The notes under the pieces: generated by a model
What the model saw: the letters and a program-made list of their open reading frames with translations, nothing else
What the model was told of the DNA's origin: nothing
Databases searched by the model: none
Shown here: positions 8,388 through 64,000 of the stretch, in pieces
Position numbering within the stretch: position 1 is the first letter of the stretch
Layout: each line of letters starts with the position of its first letter
Virus record (IMG/VR): IMGVR_UViG_3300029288_000116
Coordinates: 31,162 to 95,161 of that record
Strand: one strand, 5' to 3'
Source of the DNA: a virus
Taxonomy: Duplodnaviria > Caudoviricetes
Length of the DNA stretch: 64,000 nucleotides
Made by a program: the position numbers and the translations under genes

Positions 8388-10154
8388 TTAGACTTCTGCG
8401 AAACTAGTCCCGGTTTTCGTGCCCACAAAGTGCAAGCGAATGTAGGTGATAGCGTAAACGGGTTTAACGTAAAAGTCTCCTCTTAGTTCTCCCTTTGCAA
8501 TAGTTTCTGCTGTGTTATTGCTATCATCGCAAACAAGCTTGTAATCTTCAATGAGACCCTTACCTTTAGCGTCCGCAAAAATTGGGGTTACGTCACTAAG
8601 GAACTGTTGACGCTTAATCGCGGTATTAGGTTCCTGTAAATAATACTTAGAAACGTCAGACACTTTCTTTTCAAGAATTAGAAAAGTTAGTCTACCATGT
8701 ACATACCCGAAAATAGACTCTTTTTGTAACATGGTTTTCTGAGTCCAAATATATTTACCTTGCCCAGCTAGACTTACAACGCTGTTAACATTATGCTTAT
8801 AAATTTCGTCTCTTTCAGCTAAAGAAGGATTCCATGCTAGTCTACGAATGCCGTCTAATTTAGCTCTGTTCAAACCTGCTGGGGCTAATCCGCCTGCATC
8901 AACACACTTAACATATACGCCGGCTGCATAACCAGAGAACGGAACCCAACGATAACGATTAGCATACTTATCTTTAATATCTATCCATGTACCATAAGCT
9001 GCAGCGTAACTAGAATTAAAGTCTGAGTAGGCTGCATAAAGACCTACACTCCAAGTTACCAAATCGTCGGCTTCATTTCCGACATTATTGATTACACTGG
9101 CACTTAGACAGTCTGGAATGAACATACAATCTTTACGAGTATTACATACCTGCATCATTGTGAGCTTAGATGCATTAGGTTTATCACCATCAATAAATAC
9201 ATTGATGGTGTTATCTTCTGCATTAGCGTAGAGGTTAATTGCGGCATCCATTACTGTAGTAGAAGGAGCTTCGTTCCCATCAATGCCTGCGCCTACATTA
9301 TCAGTATTTGTTCCGCCCCCAAGAACTTGCCAAGAAGAGGTTGCAAAATTAGCAAGAGCCTGGTTCTTATAAGTAGGATTGAGAGTAACTCTAATATAAT
9401 CAGAATTTTCATTAATCTTACTTTCTACATACATTGCTTGAGAAAGGTCATCAACCTTTGTTTCATCTGTAGACACATTAAAAGCTTCTACAAAGGCCCA
9501 ATTACTTTCTACAGTAGTGTCAGAACTTTGTAGACATTCTTGGACTATAACTAAGAATTCCTTAGTAGATTCTAGTTGAGAATCTACACTACGAATAGCA
9601 GCATAAGTATCCCAAGATGCGTGAAGTTTTTGGCGAATTAAATCATAATTAGTTTTATCACACACAGCAACTCTTAGATAATTACCAGAGTAGCCTCTAT
9701 ATGCAGCGATAATATACATTACATAAGGATCAGGACAAGCTACTTCATCAGCAAAAGCATCCGGATCAGAAATAGCCCCAACACCAGTACCCAATGTATA
9801 GGCTGTTGCTGAGGTCATTTCGCTAAAGGTAGCCGATGTTCCTACAGTTGCTTTTGTCCCAGAGAAAGTTGAAGAAGTTGGCATAACTCTTGTACAATAA
9901 AGATTATTAGAACTCTTTAAAAATCCTATAGCCGAAAACATATCACAGTAACACGGAGCATATGTGGTCGGGGTTCCAAACTTAGTTACTAAGTCTGTTT
10001 CATTTATTACTAAAATTGTGTCGTTTTCTCTACCTCTCCATGTATTCCTGAGAATAATGGCACCAGCAGGCCCAGTTACTTCTTCGTTATACTGAGTTTG
10101 ATCTTCCTCAGTTATAGAAATTTGCGGTGAAATTAAATCTACTAGTTCTGGCAT
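8388..10154 (-). CDS. gp18: Tail sheath protein
   Basis: SPQISITEED, WVPFSGYAAG, APAGLNR, CDDSNNT, YVKPVYAITYIRLHFV. Confidence 0.95.
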   Translation of the reverse strand: MPELVDLISPQISITEEDQTQYNEEVTGPAGAIILRNTWRGRENDTILVINETDLVTKFGTPTTYAPCYCDMFSAIGFLKSSNNLYCTRVMPTSSTFSGTKATVGTSATFSEMTSATAYTLGTGVGAISDPDAFADEVACPDPYVMYIIAAYRGYSGNYLRVAVCDKTNYDLIRQKLHASWDTYAAIRSVDSQLESTKEFLVIVQECLQSSDTTVESNWAFVEAFNVSTDETKVDDLSQAMYVESKINENSDYIRVTLNPTYKNQALANFATSSWQVLGGGTNTDNVGAGIDGNEAPSTTVMDAAINLYANAEDNTINVFIDGDKPNASKLTMMQVCNTRKDCMFIPDCLSASVINNVGNEADDLVTWSVGLYAAYSDFNSSYAAAYGTWIDIKDKYANRYRWVPFSGYAAGVYVKCVDAGGLAPAGLNRAKLDGIRRLAWNPSLAERDEIYKHNVNSVVSLAGQGKYIWTQKTMLQKESIFGYVHGRLTFLILEKKVSDVSKYYLQEPNTAIKRQQFLSDVTPIFADAKGKGLIEDYKLVCDDSNNTAETIAKGELRGDFYVKPVYAITYIRLHFVGTKTGTSFAEV

Positions 10155-11728: not shown

Positions 11729-11932
11729 ATGTCTAGTCCCAATATACAGTTACTAAAGGCCACTTTAGAAAATCTTGCAAAAGAACTAAAATCTAATAGA
11801 CCAATGATTTACGGAATAGATGGTGCATGGGCTCAAGGATACCAAGGGGGCCAATGGGATGCCGGATTTCATATTGAGGAATTACTAAAAGACTTTTTTG
11901 ATTATGAAAAACCTGTTTCAGAAACCTCTTAG
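11729..11932 (+). CDS. Hypothetical protein
   Basis: SD AAGGAG. Confidence 0.6.
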   Translation: MSSPNIQLLKATLENLAKELKSNRPMIYGIDGAWAQGYQGGQWDAGFHIEELLKDFFDYEKPVSETS

Positions 11933-11962
11933 GTATGTTATAATAAACTAAAACTTTGGAGG
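11915..11962 (+). promoter_or_regulatory. Repeated early promoter-leader unit
   Basis: gtttcag 11915, tataat 11939, aaactaaaa, ggagg. Confidence 0.8.
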
Positions 11963-11969
11963 TAAAAGG

Positions 11970-16781: not shown

Positions 16782-17406
16782 TTCAAAAGGCTCTCAGCTT
16801 CCCTCAGTCACAACTTTAATAGGGAGATATATTAATAAACCTTATTTAGCTAAGTGGGCTAGAGACTTAATGAGAGATTATTCTCTAGATTTTGAAAAAG
16901 AGTCCAGAATAGCCACAGAAATTGGTACAATAGCTCATGAAATGGTAGAATTAGACCTTTTAGGACTACCATTAAAAGTATATCCTAAGAAATCTAAGGA
17001 CCATATTAAACATGCTTTAATTGCCTATTCCGCTTGGGAGAAGTGGAAAGAATATCATAAAATTGATAAGTTGCTAGGAACAGAAATAAAATTGACTTCA
17101 GAAGAGTATGGATTTGGGGGAACTATTGATATTCCTGCGGTAATTAATTCAAAAAATACTATATTAGATCTTAAAACATCTAAGTCTATTAGTATAGAGT
17201 ATCAGATTCAAATTGCCGCGTATGGTAAATTATGGGATGAAAATAATCCAGATACTAAAATTGAGAGATACGAAATTTTAAGACTTGATAAGTATTCTGG
17301 AGAATATGAATACGTAGGATGGGATGAATTAGAAAAACCTTGGAAGATTTTTAAATATTTTCTAGAAATAGACAAATTATTAAAAGAACTTGGGTATCAA
17401 TTTTAG
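16768..17406 (+). CDS. PD-(D/E)xK exonuclease (Cas4/lambda-exonuclease-like)
   Basis: PSVTT, GTIAH, GTID...LDLKTS...QIAAY. Confidence 0.85.
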   Translation: MAYYSSKGSQLPSVTTLIGRYINKPYLAKWARDLMRDYSLDFEKESRIATEIGTIAHEMVELDLLGLPLKVYPKKSKDHIKHALIAYSAWEKWKEYHKIDKLLGTEIKLTSEEYGFGGTIDIPAVINSKNTILDLKTSKSISIEYQIQIAAYGKLWDENNPDTKIERYEILRLDKYSGEYEYVGWDELEKPWKIFKYFLEIDKLLKELGYQF

Positions 17407-17455
17407 TTTCAGAAATTATCTAAACATGTTATAATAAACTAAAACTCTTTGGAGG
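17406..17455 (+). promoter_or_regulatory. Repeated early promoter-leader unit
   Basis: gtttcag 17406, tataat 17430, aaactaaaa, ggagg. Confidence 0.8.
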
Positions 17456-19919: not shown

Positions 19920-19967
19920 GTTTCAGAAATCTTCTAAGCATGTTATAATAAATTAAAACCTTGGAGG
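19920..19967 (+). promoter_or_regulatory. Repeated early promoter-leader unit
   Basis: gtttcag 19920, tataat 19944, aaattaaaa, ggagg. Confidence 0.8.
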
Positions 19968-19974
19968 TATAGTC

Positions 19975-38350: not shown

Positions 38351-38758
38351 TTAGTCTCCTTTAGGCCATATATATTCTATTTTAGGTTCTTCTTTCCAAT
38401 TAAATTTCAAATAATACCCAAAATCTTTAGCTAACAAAGCTGCTCTGTGTGCAGAATGAAAGTCCTCATTTCCAAACCACTTAGGATAAACAATTTTAGA
38501 TTCATCTAGATTCCATACTTCCATGGTATTCTTATACCCTCGTCTCTTCCACTCCTCTATACAAATATTCATGTACAACTTTAAGCTTTCTTCGTGTCCC
38601 TTAAACATGTGAACGGCTGGATGATTTTTCCAACCAATCTTTATTCCATAAAGTGCATCTAGGATTTGAGAATTTTCGACTCGTTGTTTTCCCAGGCGCC
38701 TATAGTCTAGACACCTAGCAGACTCAACAAAATCAGGATATGGAAGAAAAACTTGCAT
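38351..38758 (-). CDS. denV: Pyrimidine dimer DNA glycosylase/endonuclease V-family protein
   Basis: MQVFLPY, LDYRRLGKQRVE, NHPAVHM, FHSAHRAALLAKD. Confidence 0.85.
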   Translation of the reverse strand: MQVFLPYPDFVESARCLDYRRLGKQRVENSQILDALYGIKIGWKNHPAVHMFKGHEESLKLYMNICIEEWKRRGYKNTMEVWNLDESKIVYPKWFGNEDFHSAHRAALLAKDFGYYLKFNWKEEPKIEYIWPKGD

Positions 38759-38763
38759 AATTA

Positions 38764-38793
38764 ATTATAACTTAAAAGCGGAACTAAGTAAAC
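38764..38793 (-). promoter_or_regulatory. Hybrid early promoter for denV-like gene (-10 from phage flank, -35 from TnpB element)
   Basis: GTTTAC(38793-38788)-N18-TATAAT(38769-38764), 5 nt before ATG (leaderless). Confidence 0.7.
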
Positions 38794-40023
38794 TAATTAT
38801 TTTTAATAAATAAATACAAATGATAAGATCTTCCAAACATATTCTTAAGTTCCAGACAGACTTTAAAACAAGTCAACTTGAACAAATAGAAAAAGATGTC
38901 ATAGAGACTATGCAGCTTTATATTGATTTGATTTGTAAAGGTGAATTGCCTTTAGATAAGTTTTTGTCTAGTGCTTTACTCCCAGATACTAATATTACTC
39001 ATAGTCAATGGAAAGCTTGTATATATAAAGAAGTTTCGGGTATGCTAAGAGCCCAAATTAGAAGGGCTAAGAACAAGAGATACAATGCATATAAAAAGCT
39101 TTATGCTAAATGCAAGAAAGATAATAAACATGAGACTTTTACTTCAAAAAGATTCTCAGAACTTAGGCTTAAGTATATTTTAGGTTCTAAATACTTTAAG
39201 AAACCAGCTATTAAGAATTTTTCCCTCAATCTAAACTACACAGTTTTTAATTTACAGTTCGGTAACTATTTTGATAAGTGGGTTAAGATTTCTATGCCTT
39301 ATTATATGGGAAAAGATAAAAATGCGCAAACTCTTAATTTGCCTATTAATCAACATAGCCAAAACCTTAAGTATAATAAATGGAATCAAAAGAAAAGCAT
39401 TAGGTTGCTTAAGAAGAATGGTAAATATTTTCTGGTTTTTTTCTATGAAAAGGAAGACTTAAACCTAAGAAAATCTGGTTCTTCCTTAGGCATAGACCAA
39501 GGCTACAAAGCTTTGGTTACTTGTTCTGATGGCCAAATACAAGGCCAAGATTTAGAGCAACTATATAAAAGAATCAGTAACAAGAAACAGGGGTCTAAGG
39601 CCTTCAAAAGGCTGCTTGTTCATAGAGACAATGAAATTAACAGAGCTTGTAACAACCTAAACCTAAATGGAATTAAGGAACTTGTCTTAGAAGACCTTAA
39701 GTATCTTAAACATAAGACAAATTTATCAACAAAAACCATGAACACTTTACAAAGATGGTCATACCCAAAGACCATTGCAAAGTTGGAAAGTCTTGGCCAA
39801 ACGAATGGTATTCTAGTCAGCAAGGTCAATCCTGCTTATACAAGTCAAAGGTGTTCAGTTTGTGGACATATAAACAAAGGGAATAGGAAGGGTCTTGAGT
39901 TCCTTTGTTTAGAATGTGGCAATAAGTCTAATGCAGACTATAATGCTGCTAGGAATATAGCCAACTTGGGAGTGCATAGTCTCCAAGGTCCTGAGAAAGT
40001 TTAAGAAATTGACGAACTATAAC
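38772..40023 (+). mobile_element. Non-autonomous tnpB-only element (IS200/IS605-like) bounded by TATAAC
   Basis: TATAAC at 38766-38771 and 40018-40023; removing the element restores a consensus promoter; no tnpA in window. Confidence 0.75.
38820..40004 (+). CDS. tnpB: RNA-guided endonuclease TnpB
   Basis: RuvC-I GIDQG, RuvC-II LEDL, TSQRCSVC...CLEC Zn finger, RuvC-III NADYNAARNI; catalytic D-E-D intact. Confidence 0.92.
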   Translation: MIRSSKHILKFQTDFKTSQLEQIEKDVIETMQLYIDLICKGELPLDKFLSSALLPDTNITHSQWKACIYKEVSGMLRAQIRRAKNKRYNAYKKLYAKCKKDNKHETFTSKRFSELRLKYILGSKYFKKPAIKNFSLNLNYTVFNLQFGNYFDKWVKISMPYYMGKDKNAQTLNLPINQHSQNLKYNKWNQKKSIRLLKKNGKYFLVFFYEKEDLNLRKSGSSLGIDQGYKALVTCSDGQIQGQDLEQLYKRISNKKQGSKAFKRLLVHRDNEINRACNNLNLNGIKELVLEDLKYLKHKTNLSTKTMNTLQRWSYPKTIAKLESLGQTNGILVSKVNPAYTSQRCSVCGHINKGNRKGLEFLCLECGNKSNADYNAARNIANLGVHSLQGPEKV

Positions 40024-40043
40024 CTATTTTTCTTGATGTGTAA
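39880..40043 (+). ncRNA. Predicted omegaRNA (scaffold overlapping tnpB 3' end, guide from about 40024); 5' boundary uncertain
   Basis: Hairpin CTTGGGAG-tgcatagt-CTCCAAG 39965-39987 and right-end position; inferred from known TnpB architecture. Confidence 0.45.
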
Positions 40044-40237
40044 ACTTATTTTGCTCTACTCCACCCCTTCATAGCAAAAATAACTGGAGCTTTTAACCAA
40101 AAACAAGGTTCACAAATCTGAAAACCTAAAATATTGTAAACTGTGTCGTTCTTTTTAGCCTCGTGTCCACAAGGACAAATCCAAGATTTACCTAAAATTT
40201 TCTTTTTCGCCTTTTTTAACATAATTTAAATTCCTCA

Positions 40238-43353: not shown

Positions 43354-43358
43354 AAATA

Positions 43359-43406
43359 CCTCCACAATTTTAATTTATTATAACATGTTTAGAGGTTTTC
43401 TGAAAC
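43359..43406 (-). promoter_or_regulatory. Repeated early promoter-leader unit
   Basis: Minus strand gtttcagaaaacctctaaacatgttataataaattaaaattgtggagg. Confidence 0.8.
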
Positions 43407-43573
43407 CAATTATTAGACTAAATTCTTCCTAATAGGATAAGGCAACCTATAATCACCATTTATAATCATATACAGCAAACTATTAAAGGCTATTGAAAAA
43501 TCAAGAAGTCGACGATTAAAGCACTTAAAGGAAAAGAAGTCAATAATTTGTCTATTTAACCAAAACAATAATC

Positions 43574-53188: not shown

Positions 53189-53259
53189 TGGAGCGGGGGC
53201 CGGTGATGAAACCGGATTTCCAGTCGGGAAGACCGTATTTTACTTTAAATTACCCCCGC
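53189..53259 (-). tRNA. Atypical tRNA-Gly-like gene (anticodon TCC or CCC ambiguous)
   Basis: Acceptor GCGGGGG/CCCCCGC, U73, CCA followed by a second CCA; aberrant D, anticodon and T loops. Confidence 0.6.
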
Positions 53260-53269
53260 ATCTGAATAG

Positions 53270-53299
53270 ATTATATCACTTTGGCGGGATGAAGTAAAC
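53270..53299 (-). promoter_or_regulatory. Early promoter GTTTAC-N18-TATAAT for the tRNA/nucleotidyltransferase operon
   Basis: Minus strand gtttacttcatcccgccaaagtgatataat. Confidence 0.7.
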
Positions 53300-57987: not shown

Positions 57988-58035
57988 GTTTCAGAAAACC
58001 TCTGAACATGTTATAATAAACTAAAACCTTGGAGG
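57988..58035 (+). promoter_or_regulatory. Repeated early promoter-leader unit
   Basis: gtttcag 57988, tataat 58012, aaactaaaa, ggagg. Confidence 0.8.
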
Positions 58036-58294
58036 TAAACTATGAAATTATGGAGACTTATAAAAAGTGGAAAGGTGCAGAAAGATGAACATGTTTGTTT
58101 ATTAATACGGGCAAAATCTGAAAAGTCGGCTAGAATCGTCGCTCGCACATTTGCAGATGAATATGATGAACCTAATCTCGCAGATAGTTGGTTAGACCCA
58201 AAACAGGTTATTTGTCAAAAAATAAAAATGGAAGGACTAGAAGAAGTTTTAATAGAACAAATATAAACTAAAACCTTGGAGGTAAACTATGAAA
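58016..58294 (+). repeat. 32-bp perfect direct repeat flanking one gene
   Basis: ataaactaaaaccttggaggtaaactatgaaa at 58016-58047 and 58263-58294. Confidence 0.9.
58042..58266 (+). CDS. Hypothetical protein
   Basis: Promoter and SD. Confidence 0.65.
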   Translation: MKLWRLIKSGKVQKDEHVCLLIRAKSEKSARIVARTFADEYDEPNLADSWLDPKQVICQKIKMEGLEEVLIEQI

Positions 58295-62798: not shown

Positions 62799-63728
62799 TT
62801 ATATCCAATTACTAGGGATTTTTTCCCAAAATTCTCTTATTTGCTTAGCAGTAAGTTTTCTAATATATGAATTTAGAATTTTTCTACCACCCTTAAAGTC
62901 TCTTAAATATTTTTTCCAAAACTCTTCATAGGTATATTCTAATCCTTGTTTTCTAAGTTCTGTAAATATACTATTTTGCAAAAATGCTTGTCCTATATTT
63001 GTAGGTTCAGGTTCAAATAAAACAGTTAATATTTCTATCATAATATCTTTGACTTTAGGATTACTTTCAGCGTCTTCACTTTTATATACTTTTCCGTCAT
63101 CTACTTGTATAACATTTTCGATATTTTGTAAATCATAAATTTTACCAAACTTTTTGCTATTAAGAAAGTCTATTACATAGTCTCTATACTTTTTATCTAC
63201 AGAACCATTAGCCTTGCCCTTAATTTGGTGAACTTCATTACCGCTTACCTCTATTGTACAGTGAGGTTCATTCTTTTTATCTCTCAAACTAAAAATTTTA
63301 GTATTTCCGCCTTGCACTTCATCACAATAAGACCCAACACAATGTTTCATTAACTTGCCTTCTCTATCTAAGGCTTGTTTACTAATTACATCAACCCATT
63401 TAAATCCGTCTGGATATTTTTTTATTATTTTAATTCCACCAGCATCTTCTTGATCAGAGGCCTTTTTGTTTAGTTGCTCAGTCCATTGTCTACTTTGTTG
63501 TATAGCTTCTCTAACCGAGATCCTAGAGATATTAAGGTCTGGGTTTGCTTGAAAATAGTCTAAGACGTGATCTATTTGATTTTTAAACGCGTAGGGTATT
63601 TCTATATTAAGAAGTTCGTCTCCTCTATTTTTAGCTTTAGCAACCCAAGGTTTTTCTAATACAGCTAACTGCAGTTGAGCCGAAGAGAGTTTTGTTACCA
63701 TATGGTATTCTCTAAGGAGAAAATTTTT
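62799..63728 (-). pseudogene. N-terminally truncated PcfJ-like paralogue
   Basis: Frame extends upstream of ATG 63701 as *KNFLLREYH, matching KNYLLREYP of the paralogue; first ~50 aa absent. Confidence 0.6.
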
Positions 63729-64000
63729 CTATCAATTTAGATCAGGGAATTTTTAACATAGAATATGGTAATCATTTTGATAATTGGATCAAGATTTCTT
63801 TACCATATAAAGAACTAAATAAAAATGCCCCAGTTCTTAAACTTCCGATTAATCAACATAGTCAAAGTTTAAAGTATAGTAAATGGGATAGAAAACAAAG
63901 TATTAGAATATTTAAGACAGATGATAAATATTTTTTACAGTTTGTCTATGAAAAAGAAACCCCAAAACTCAGGGCCAAAGGTTCTTCCTTAGGCATAGAC
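63719..64000 (+). pseudogene. tnpB: Second tnpB, 5'-truncated, continues beyond window
   Basis: ENFSINLDQGIFNIEYGNHFDNWIKISLPY...LPINQHSQ...GSSLGID aligns to the middle of TnpB 38820-40004; in-frame TAA at 63713 upstream. Confidence 0.8.

Follow-up and report, generated by a model that had tools for sequence, protein, structure and literature searches.

How does a gene remain expressed once a mobile element has come to lie within its promoter region? This question is raised by a locus in a 64,000-nucleotide (nt) stretch of phage DNA, hereafter the window (G000:C2:31162-95161, from a metagenomic bin of 1.16 Mb in 56 contigs), where an intact tnpB gene sits between a gene of 58 codons and a denV-like gene that is itself preceded by a complete early-type promoter. 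It had been predicted from the window alone that the element is inserted in the -10 box of an early promoter, and that it repairs this promoter by carrying a replacement -35. The analysis presented here argues for another account, which is on balance the probable one: the DNA from ~38801 to 40020 (+) would be a TnpB-omegaRNA cassette devoid of the transposase TnpA, one of six copies, lying antisense between the 58-codon and denV-like genes, with denV keeping a promoter that is probably native. The cassette appears to consist of a short leader containing a box that resembles a late promoter, the gene for the nuclease, and a scaffold for the omegaRNA, which ends at ACTAT. The idea of a promoter-repairing element is probably wrong, and is not a trait of the family.

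Such a cassette would act much like a free-standing homing endonuclease gene. During co-infection, TnpB together with its omegaRNA would cut those alleles of related phages that lack the cassette, and the cassette would then be copied into the cut allele by phage recombination.

The nuclease gene, the right end and the guide

The product of tnpB matches the Cas12f1-like TNB domain (PF07282, E 3e-18), and its profile matches in the PDB are to solved TnpB and Cas12f chains. The catalytic residues D226, E291 and D373, as well as C345, C348, C363 and C366, which form both CxxC pairs of the zinc finger, are invariant among 29 relatives. On the evidence of domain, catalytic triad and zinc finger, the cassette is predicted to encode an RNA-guided nuclease of the TnpB type (OMEGA). 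No match to the Y1 transposase family (PF01797) was found in the bin by a search whose controls responded, although the phage genome lies in at least four contigs and the absence of such a transposase is therefore not proven.

The right end of the cassette is sharp. Thirteen sequences can be aligned past the tnpB stop codon up to ...GAC(A/G)ACTAT, and diverge at the next base; they comprise four full paralogues, a fragment on contig C27 of the bin, a pair of relatives with 80% identity that were found in an ENA assembly (L048 and L049; the window copy, at 38820-40004, is L001), and six more distant relatives. In the distant relatives the right end takes the form A(C/T)TAT. In the window, the boundary falls at ACTAT|AACC (40020|40021), 3 nt earlier than the boundary after TATAAC that had been predicted. 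Accordingly, the predicted guide begins at 40021, 3 nt before the one first proposed, and would be taken from the flank directly after the right end. As a 20-mer, this guide is single-copy in the bin at up to 3 mismatches.

The region that would form the omegaRNA is conserved. Over the last 260 nt, the mean column identity of seven copies is 90%, as compared to 78-81% over the whole gene, and 14 of 39 predicted pairs show compensatory changes among the 13 sequences. For instance, one pair is C-G in seven sequences and U-A in the other six, and is broken in none. Nucleotide conservation beyond coding needs, combined with compensatory pairs, is the expected footprint of an omegaRNA scaffold, and the original view of the element as a TnpB that takes its guide from the flank is supported in this respect. 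The single-sequence fold of the region is no better than that of shuffled sequences (z -0.5), and no omegaRNA family in Rfam matches the scaffold.

Table 1. Features of the tnpB locus and related features of the window (aa, amino acids; TAM, target-adjacent motif)
Feature	Position	Strand	Remarks
denV-like pyrimidine dimer DNA glycosylase gene	38351-38758	-	135 aa; Pfam PF03013 (Pyr_excise), E 1.8e-23
Complete early-type promoter GTTTAC-18-TATAAT	38764-38793	-	followed by TAATT (5 nt), then denV ATG
Second TAATTAT	38794-38800	+	abuts the conserved leader; candidate TAM-side junction (ATTAT)
Cassette leader	38801-38819	+	conserved with L049 and L048; T4-late-promoter-like TAATAAATA; without Shine-Dalgarno sequence
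tnpB	38820-40004	+	394 aa; RuvC D-E-D and zinc finger intact
Putative omegaRNA scaffold	39790-40020	+	overlaps the 3' end of tnpB; terminates in conserved ...GAC(G)AACTAT
Predicted hybrid near-consensus promoter GTTTAC-N18-TATAGT	40016-40045	-	native -35 (40040-40045) and 18-nt spacer; antisense into tnpB
Predicted guide AACCTATTTTTCTTGATGTG	40021-40040	+	first flank bases past the right end; corresponds to the spacer of the disrupted promoter upstream
58-aa gene upstream of the promoter region	40046-40222	-	84% DNA identity in ENA contig L053, where it directly precedes denV
Second tnpB copy	63719-64000	+	5'-truncated; begins near residue 132, ends at the contig end
~50-nt repeats	11915-11966, 17406-17455, 19920-19969, 43356-43407, 57988-58037		

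The left end, by comparison, offers little sequence. Among the paralogues, homology begins no more than 4 nt ahead of the tnpB AUG codon, and the additional 19-nt leader of the window copy (TTTTAATAAATAA...) is common only to L049 and, in part, to L048, the leaders of both being delimited by empty alleles. Homology between the window copy and L049 begins at 38801, directly after the second TAATTAT. More distant relatives have TATAAATA at the leader position. This T4-type late box is not enriched in the window (10 occurrences against 13 expected), so that the late-promoter reading of the leader draws on conservation among the copies only. In the case of copy L004, a sense promoter lies ahead of tnpB.

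Empty alleles and left junctions

At five loci, the cassette is present in some and absent from other related phages. For the locus of the window, the closest relative of denV (85% identity) is found on L053, a 2.4-kb ENA contig with DNA that is 76-84% identical to both flanks. This allele is empty: the 58-aa gene is followed directly by denV, with a 39-nt spacer that reads TAG, GG, GTTTAT, 18 nt, TATAAT, 7 nt and ATG. Since this relative has the same two genes with one promoter between them and no cassette, the cassette did enter a promoter region, as had been proposed. The empty allele that was to be expected has therefore been found in kind, but the exact join cannot be read, since the spacer of L053 is too diverged to reveal it. 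A reverse-complement likeness between this spacer and positions 38775-38792 (13 of 18) was judged to be due to chance.

The remaining four empty alleles bound the left ends more closely. The L003 site is empty in L137, where a glycosyltransferase gene (87% identical, 366 aa) is directly followed by a 96-aa gene; in the occupied site ~13 native bases are gone, and the sequence ATGA at the start of tnpB provides the stop codon. The L048 site is empty in contig C2 of the window's own phage, which has an orthologous gene (90% identical), the same TAG codon, and then 59 nt that are missing from the occupied allele. The L049 site is likewise empty in this phage, where contig C12 has one copy of ACTTGGAGAAAGT, whereas the occupied allele has ACTTGGAGAAAGT on both sides of the cassette. 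Conversely, the L002 site is empty in the contig of L049, with one copy of TTAAAAGAGATT as against two in the occupied allele (junctions of L049 at 8410-8475 and 9636-9712 were compared with L002:205-292:-, and those of L002 with L049:7190-7262). The left junctions are imprecise, with duplications of 11-13 nt at the L049 and L002 sites and deletions of 13 and 59 nt at the L003 and L048 sites, and the element-borne left leaders that the four empty alleles delimit measure only 0-24 nt.

The duplicated 11-13 nt at the L049 and L002 sites are the first bases of each cassette's own guide target. In the four empty alleles, the targets have 1-3 or more mismatches to the guides, and such mismatches could explain why these sites stay empty.

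The left boundaries of more distant relatives follow A(A/T)TAT, and the site of the window copy has ATTAT. An ATTAT is found at most 60 nt upstream in six of nine loci, three times at 51-53 nt, and was considered as a general TAM on the basis of the left flanks. This was rejected: empty alleles and full-length homologues identify the sequence concerned as native coding sequence at L003 and L048. Joining the L003 flanks at ATTAT into a fused gene was also rejected, given that the glycosyltransferase homologues measure ~366 aa, and a stop-free joined open reading frame at L048 was ascribed to chance.

Early promoters of the phage and the right junction

Promoters of the type GTTTAC-N16-19-TATAAT have five matches in the window against 0.16 expected. 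Perfect motifs number 13 in the bin and are found exclusively in contigs C2, C7, C12 and C27, all of which bear tnpB; with one mismatch allowed, the frequency is 2.7 per 10 kb in these four contigs, as compared to 0.37 in the other 52. The original prediction was right that this promoter type is real, and its coordinates and strings are also correct: the intact tnpB lies between TATAAC copies at 38766-38771 and 40018-40023, the minus strand ahead of denV reads as listed in Table 1, and the 58-aa gene has its stop codon directly next to a GTAAAC at 40040-40045, such that flanks joined at TATAAC give GTTTAC-N18-TATAAT. The motif proposed as the target of insertion fared less well. GTTATA was said to be the extended -10 of most early promoters of the phage, yet GTTATAAT is found in only 3 of the 13 perfect promoters. 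With 7 occurrences against 6.1 expected, GTTATAAT shows no enrichment, nor does TATAAC itself (47 against 56 expected). Moreover, the right-hand TATAAC is made up in part of the element's own ACTAT, completed by AAC of the flank, so that the two hexamers do not represent a clean target duplication.

The TATAAT-N4-7-ATG layout at denV is also found at other promoters of the phage, several of which lie 4-7 nt from an ATG, and is thus normal here. Early-type promoters that lack a Shine-Dalgarno sequence and place TATAAT 4-7 nt before the ATG are also found at C7:1914, C7:37227 and C12:6636. Such an arrangement is suggestive of leaderless early mRNAs in this phage.

At the right junction, a smaller form of the hybrid-promoter idea appears to hold. 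The terminal ACTAT of the element is one base off ATTAT, with the consequence that the -10 hit by the cassette has the form TATAGT, at the proper distance of 18 nt from the native GTTTAC; the first T of this hexamer comes from the flank (base 40021), and the remaining ATAGT is complementary to the ACTAT of the element (40016-40020). A near-consensus promoter, antisense to tnpB, is therefore predicted to be preserved, and in position (40016-40045) it agrees with the -35 of the one promoter that L053 has.

Whose -35 precedes denV?

The -35 at 38788-38793 is the crux of the matter. Joining the flanks at either ATTAT gives a perfect promoter, and the arithmetic of the join does not discriminate between the possibilities: for the candidate empty join TAATTAT|AACCTATT, omission of 38769-38800 leaves a spacer of 35 nt, while its retention leaves one of ~67 nt with two promoters, as a native origin would have it. 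The left ends of 0-24 nt in the relatives, together with the start of homology at 38801, make it more likely that the -35 is native. Most likely, then, the second ATTAT (38796-38800) marks the junction, the left end comprises no more than the 19-nt leader, and the promoter at 38764-38793, including its -35, is native phage DNA and not cargo of the element. A native tandem promoter at denV is the most likely case. The cassette would have hit the -10 of the second, upstream promoter, the -35 and spacer of which remain at 40022-40045, and the full promoter of denV would represent either the other member of the tandem or a later replacement on the phage side.

In the alternative closest to the original prediction, the element entered after the first ATTAT (38764-38768, within the first TAATTAT at 38762-38768), and a 51-nt left end brought an outward GTTTAC, creating a hybrid promoter that keeps denV expressed. 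This would imply an empty join of TAATTAT|AACCTATTT, with a 35-nt spacer and with 38769-38800 borne by the element. A number of observations count in its favor, or otherwise against the account preferred here. L053, the only empty allele of this locus, has one promoter and not two, with the -35 directly at the stop codon and the -10 at the ATG, in better agreement with a junction at the first ATTAT. In addition, TAAGTAAAC is common to the left ends of the window copy and of the distant relative L050 (7 independent sites in ~138 loci), and the first bases past the first ATTAT show a weak, loose resemblance to the leader of L051. Tandem promoters of the form TATAAT-N0-8-GTTTAC were not found in promoter context elsewhere in the phage contigs, where the scan gave two hits that are unexamined. 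Finally, the bases 5' of the targets in the four empty alleles (TTGAC, TTTGT, GAAAT and TTAAG) share no motif with ATTAT.

Against an element-borne -35 stand, besides the short left ends of four relatives and homology to L049 that begins only after the second TAATTAT, three further points. GTAAAC within a TATAAC junction had been put forward as a possible constant of the left ends, but neither this GTAAAC nor a TATAAC junction is present in any of the seven other left ends that were read. The spacer of the denV promoter has CCGC at the same offset as in the native promoter at 53270-53299, and the probability that a perfect hexamer arises by chance at the exact spacing is about 1 in 1000. An origin of this -35 within the element is for these reasons distinctly unlikely. 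The wider claim that insertions of this family fall in promoters finds no match either, as none of the six other right flanks read is promoter-like. The original prediction had named other boundaries or random insertion sites in homologous elements as evidence that would speak against it, and since the homologues do show other boundaries and non-promoter sites, the claim is refuted at the level of the family.

The native promoter with the shared CCGC, a GTTTAC-18-TATAAT on the minus strand, is followed by a G+C-rich, self-complementary stretch of ~75 nt that ends in CCACCA (promoter and stretch together at 53190-53299). ARAGORN and Rfam found nothing in this stretch.

The phage may instead have repaired the damage itself. 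Here, a single promoter would have been split by the cassette, and its -35 and spacer regained through microhomology at TAATTAT, by an ectopic recombination or duplication that copied another early promoter. A 32-nt unit does lie between two copies of TAATTAT, a 7-nt direct repeat that grows to 10 nt (TAATTATAAC) once the flank is joined; the spacer is similar to the one in the promoter at 53270-53299, and the one promoter of L053 is as this history would predict. However, a donor for the 25-nt unit is lacking in the bin at up to 3 mismatches, a 19-nt core of the unit has no exact match in IMG/VR, and in sequence the outcome is indistinguishable from native tandem promoters. Repair on the phage side is unlikely, and native tandem promoters remain the preferred explanation for the -35 of denV.

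Effects on neighboring genes and a possible history

In several cases, the ends of the cassette provide neighboring genes with signals for expression. The right end gives the downstream gene an in-frame start codon at two loci, L002 (TTG ACA ACT ATT...) and L003 (ATG CAG ACA ACT ATG...), and at two, L003 and L134, the upstream gene takes its stop codon from the ATGA of tnpB (L134 220-340; the other junctions were read at L002:1428-1500:-, L003:1400-1530:- and L003:2640-2760:-). At the locus of the window, the -10 has been turned to TATAGT. A wider history can be suggested, if only tentatively: this lineage may have given up transposition of the TnpA type, and may spread among lytic T4-like phages as RNA-guided free-standing homing genes, entering by break repair with a sharp right and a ragged left junction, with survivors being those that keep their neighbors expressed. 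With respect to the duplications, it is conceivable that the cut left end keeps ~12 bases of the target and is joined early to the cassette copy during repair of the break.

Source of the DNA and other copies

The large genes of the window include those for tail sheath, portal, large terminase, DNA polymerase, helicases and ligase of a phage. All six tnpB matches in the bin sit in contigs C2, C7, C12 and C27, and the confinement of both tnpB and the early-promoter motif to the same four contigs points to one phage of at least 187 kb that has been mis-binned. The four contigs, which total at least 187 kb, have a G+C content of 0.34-0.35, similar to that of the 1.16-Mb bin genome. They appear to represent a phage whose early promoters are T4-like and which shares its bin with a landfill bacterium of small genome size. 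A family of ~50-nt repeats, 80-90% alike, is scattered over C2, C7 and C12 (Table 1).

Searches for the locus elsewhere returned little. The one public DNA run with the locus, a landfill metagenome kept as contigs, shows the occupied allele only, without any join that skips the cassette, a metagenome scan for the locus gave the bin's own contigs only, and no RNA run holding the locus is listed among public runs. No closer relatives of the locus came to light: phage records gave no match, relatives of denV in IMG/VR are at most 48% identical, the flank proteins that were looked up are all singletons at 90% identity, and 400 genomes of the host phylum yielded no denV. The ENA assemblies in which the relatives lie are ERZ27247770-773.

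The four full tnpB copies of the phage are 76-81% identical to each other, with 88% identity over the fragment on C27. This contig starts within a tnpB copy, indicating that the repeats break the assembly. The 5'-truncated copy at the end of the window lies only 18 nt from the start of an adjoining minus-strand gene. In related phages, the tnpB of L135 (2501-3708) is split by a frameshift, and that of L134 has a premature stop codon near the C-terminus (1440-1480), with the 3' RNA region intact despite this stop.

Such decay bears on another reading, in which TnpB has been domesticated, no longer homes, and serves the phage, for example as a weapon that cuts diverged sites in competitor phages or through an action on promoter DNA. 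The lack of TnpA, the loss of the right-end hairpin, the late-promoter-like leaders, and the retention of six diverged copies with catalytic residues intact could all be accommodated by a domesticated nuclease. The frequency of decay speaks against it, as does the variable presence of the cassette at five loci; moreover, each guide matches only its own flank (as checked for the window copy), and an intact RuvC domain argues against a repressor of the TldR type. Domestication is highly improbable, and a cassette that homes is favored over one that serves its host.

Comparison with known systems

The cassette resembles the TnpB-omegaRNA elements of the IS200/IS605 group of insertion sequences (IS), such as ISDra2 and the Geobacillus ISGst elements (PMC8612924, PMC10055086), in its RuvC and zinc-finger nuclease, in a putative omegaRNA laid over the 3' end of the gene, in a guide drawn from the right flank, and in a terminal ACTAT that resembles, yet differs from, the likely adjacent motif (ATTAT or AATAT). 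It differs in that the bin has no identified TnpA, the hairpin of the right end has been deleted and none was seen at the left, where the end is cut down to 0-24 nt, and the host replicon is a phage of lytic type. Insertion of IS605 is scarless and without target duplication (PMC10055086), which leaves the 11-13 nt duplications at two cassette loci unexplained. A Y1 transposase, hairpins at both ends and duplication-free insertion directly 3' of the TAM, the marks of an IS200/IS605 element mobilized by TnpA, all appear to be missing here.

The loss of the right-end hairpin can be traced by comparison with relatives of ~53% identity in contigs of T4-like phages. These have left ends of >100 nt and related stem-loop sequences near both ends, resembling those of IS605 elements that are mobilized by TnpA. 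In the group of the window copy, the right-end stem-loop is an alignment gap, and no counterpart of the left-end stem-loop was seen in the short leaders. L050 (4001-5179) and L052 (4001-5182) are TnpB relatives of 53-57% identity on contigs that require TGA to be read as tryptophan, and both have the related stem-loop sequences near their ends; L050 lies in a T4-like phage, between the prohead protease gene and the scaffold and major capsid genes.

Hybrid promoters, in which an outward -35 in the end of an IS is combined with a native -10, are approached by the GTTTAC-N18-TATAGT of the right junction. Unlike those promoters, the -35 at the left junction is probably native, and an outward -35 is present in no other copy. 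The nuclease-dead TnpB repressors known as TldR (PMC10705468) are also TnpB relatives with guides that match promoter DNA, whereas the cassette has an intact D-E-D triad and its guide matches its own flank.

The closest parallel in lifestyle may be with the free-standing homing endonuclease genes of T4-like phages, seg and mob (PMC13565253). Like these, the cassettes are lone genes inserted between phage genes that are conserved; related phages differ in having or lacking them, one genome often has several, some copies are decaying, and they have a putative late-type promoter or translational coupling to their neighbors. Presence or absence at the same intergenic site, as would be expected of a homing gene, is seen at five sites. 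Unlike the seg and mob endonucleases, the cassette would recognize its target by an RNA guide and not by protein, and self would be distinguished from non-self by the presence or absence of the cassette beside the target. A 2026 review treats the spread of TnpB between phages as theoretical (PMC13565253), and a search of a limited collection of literature found no paper on TnpB as a free-standing homing gene in lytic phages.

In bacteria, homing by TnpB has been shown in conjunction with TnpA, and it has been proposed for plasmids. The locus described here is a real and fairly interesting object, for which TnpA-less TnpB cassettes that home among related phages offer a better-supported story than promoter repair. 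With five loci known in both occupied and empty form, a defined right end and readable guides, homing by TnpB in phages becomes directly testable, and the junction scars, in the form of guide-proximal target duplications, may record how an element that has only its nuclease enters DNA.

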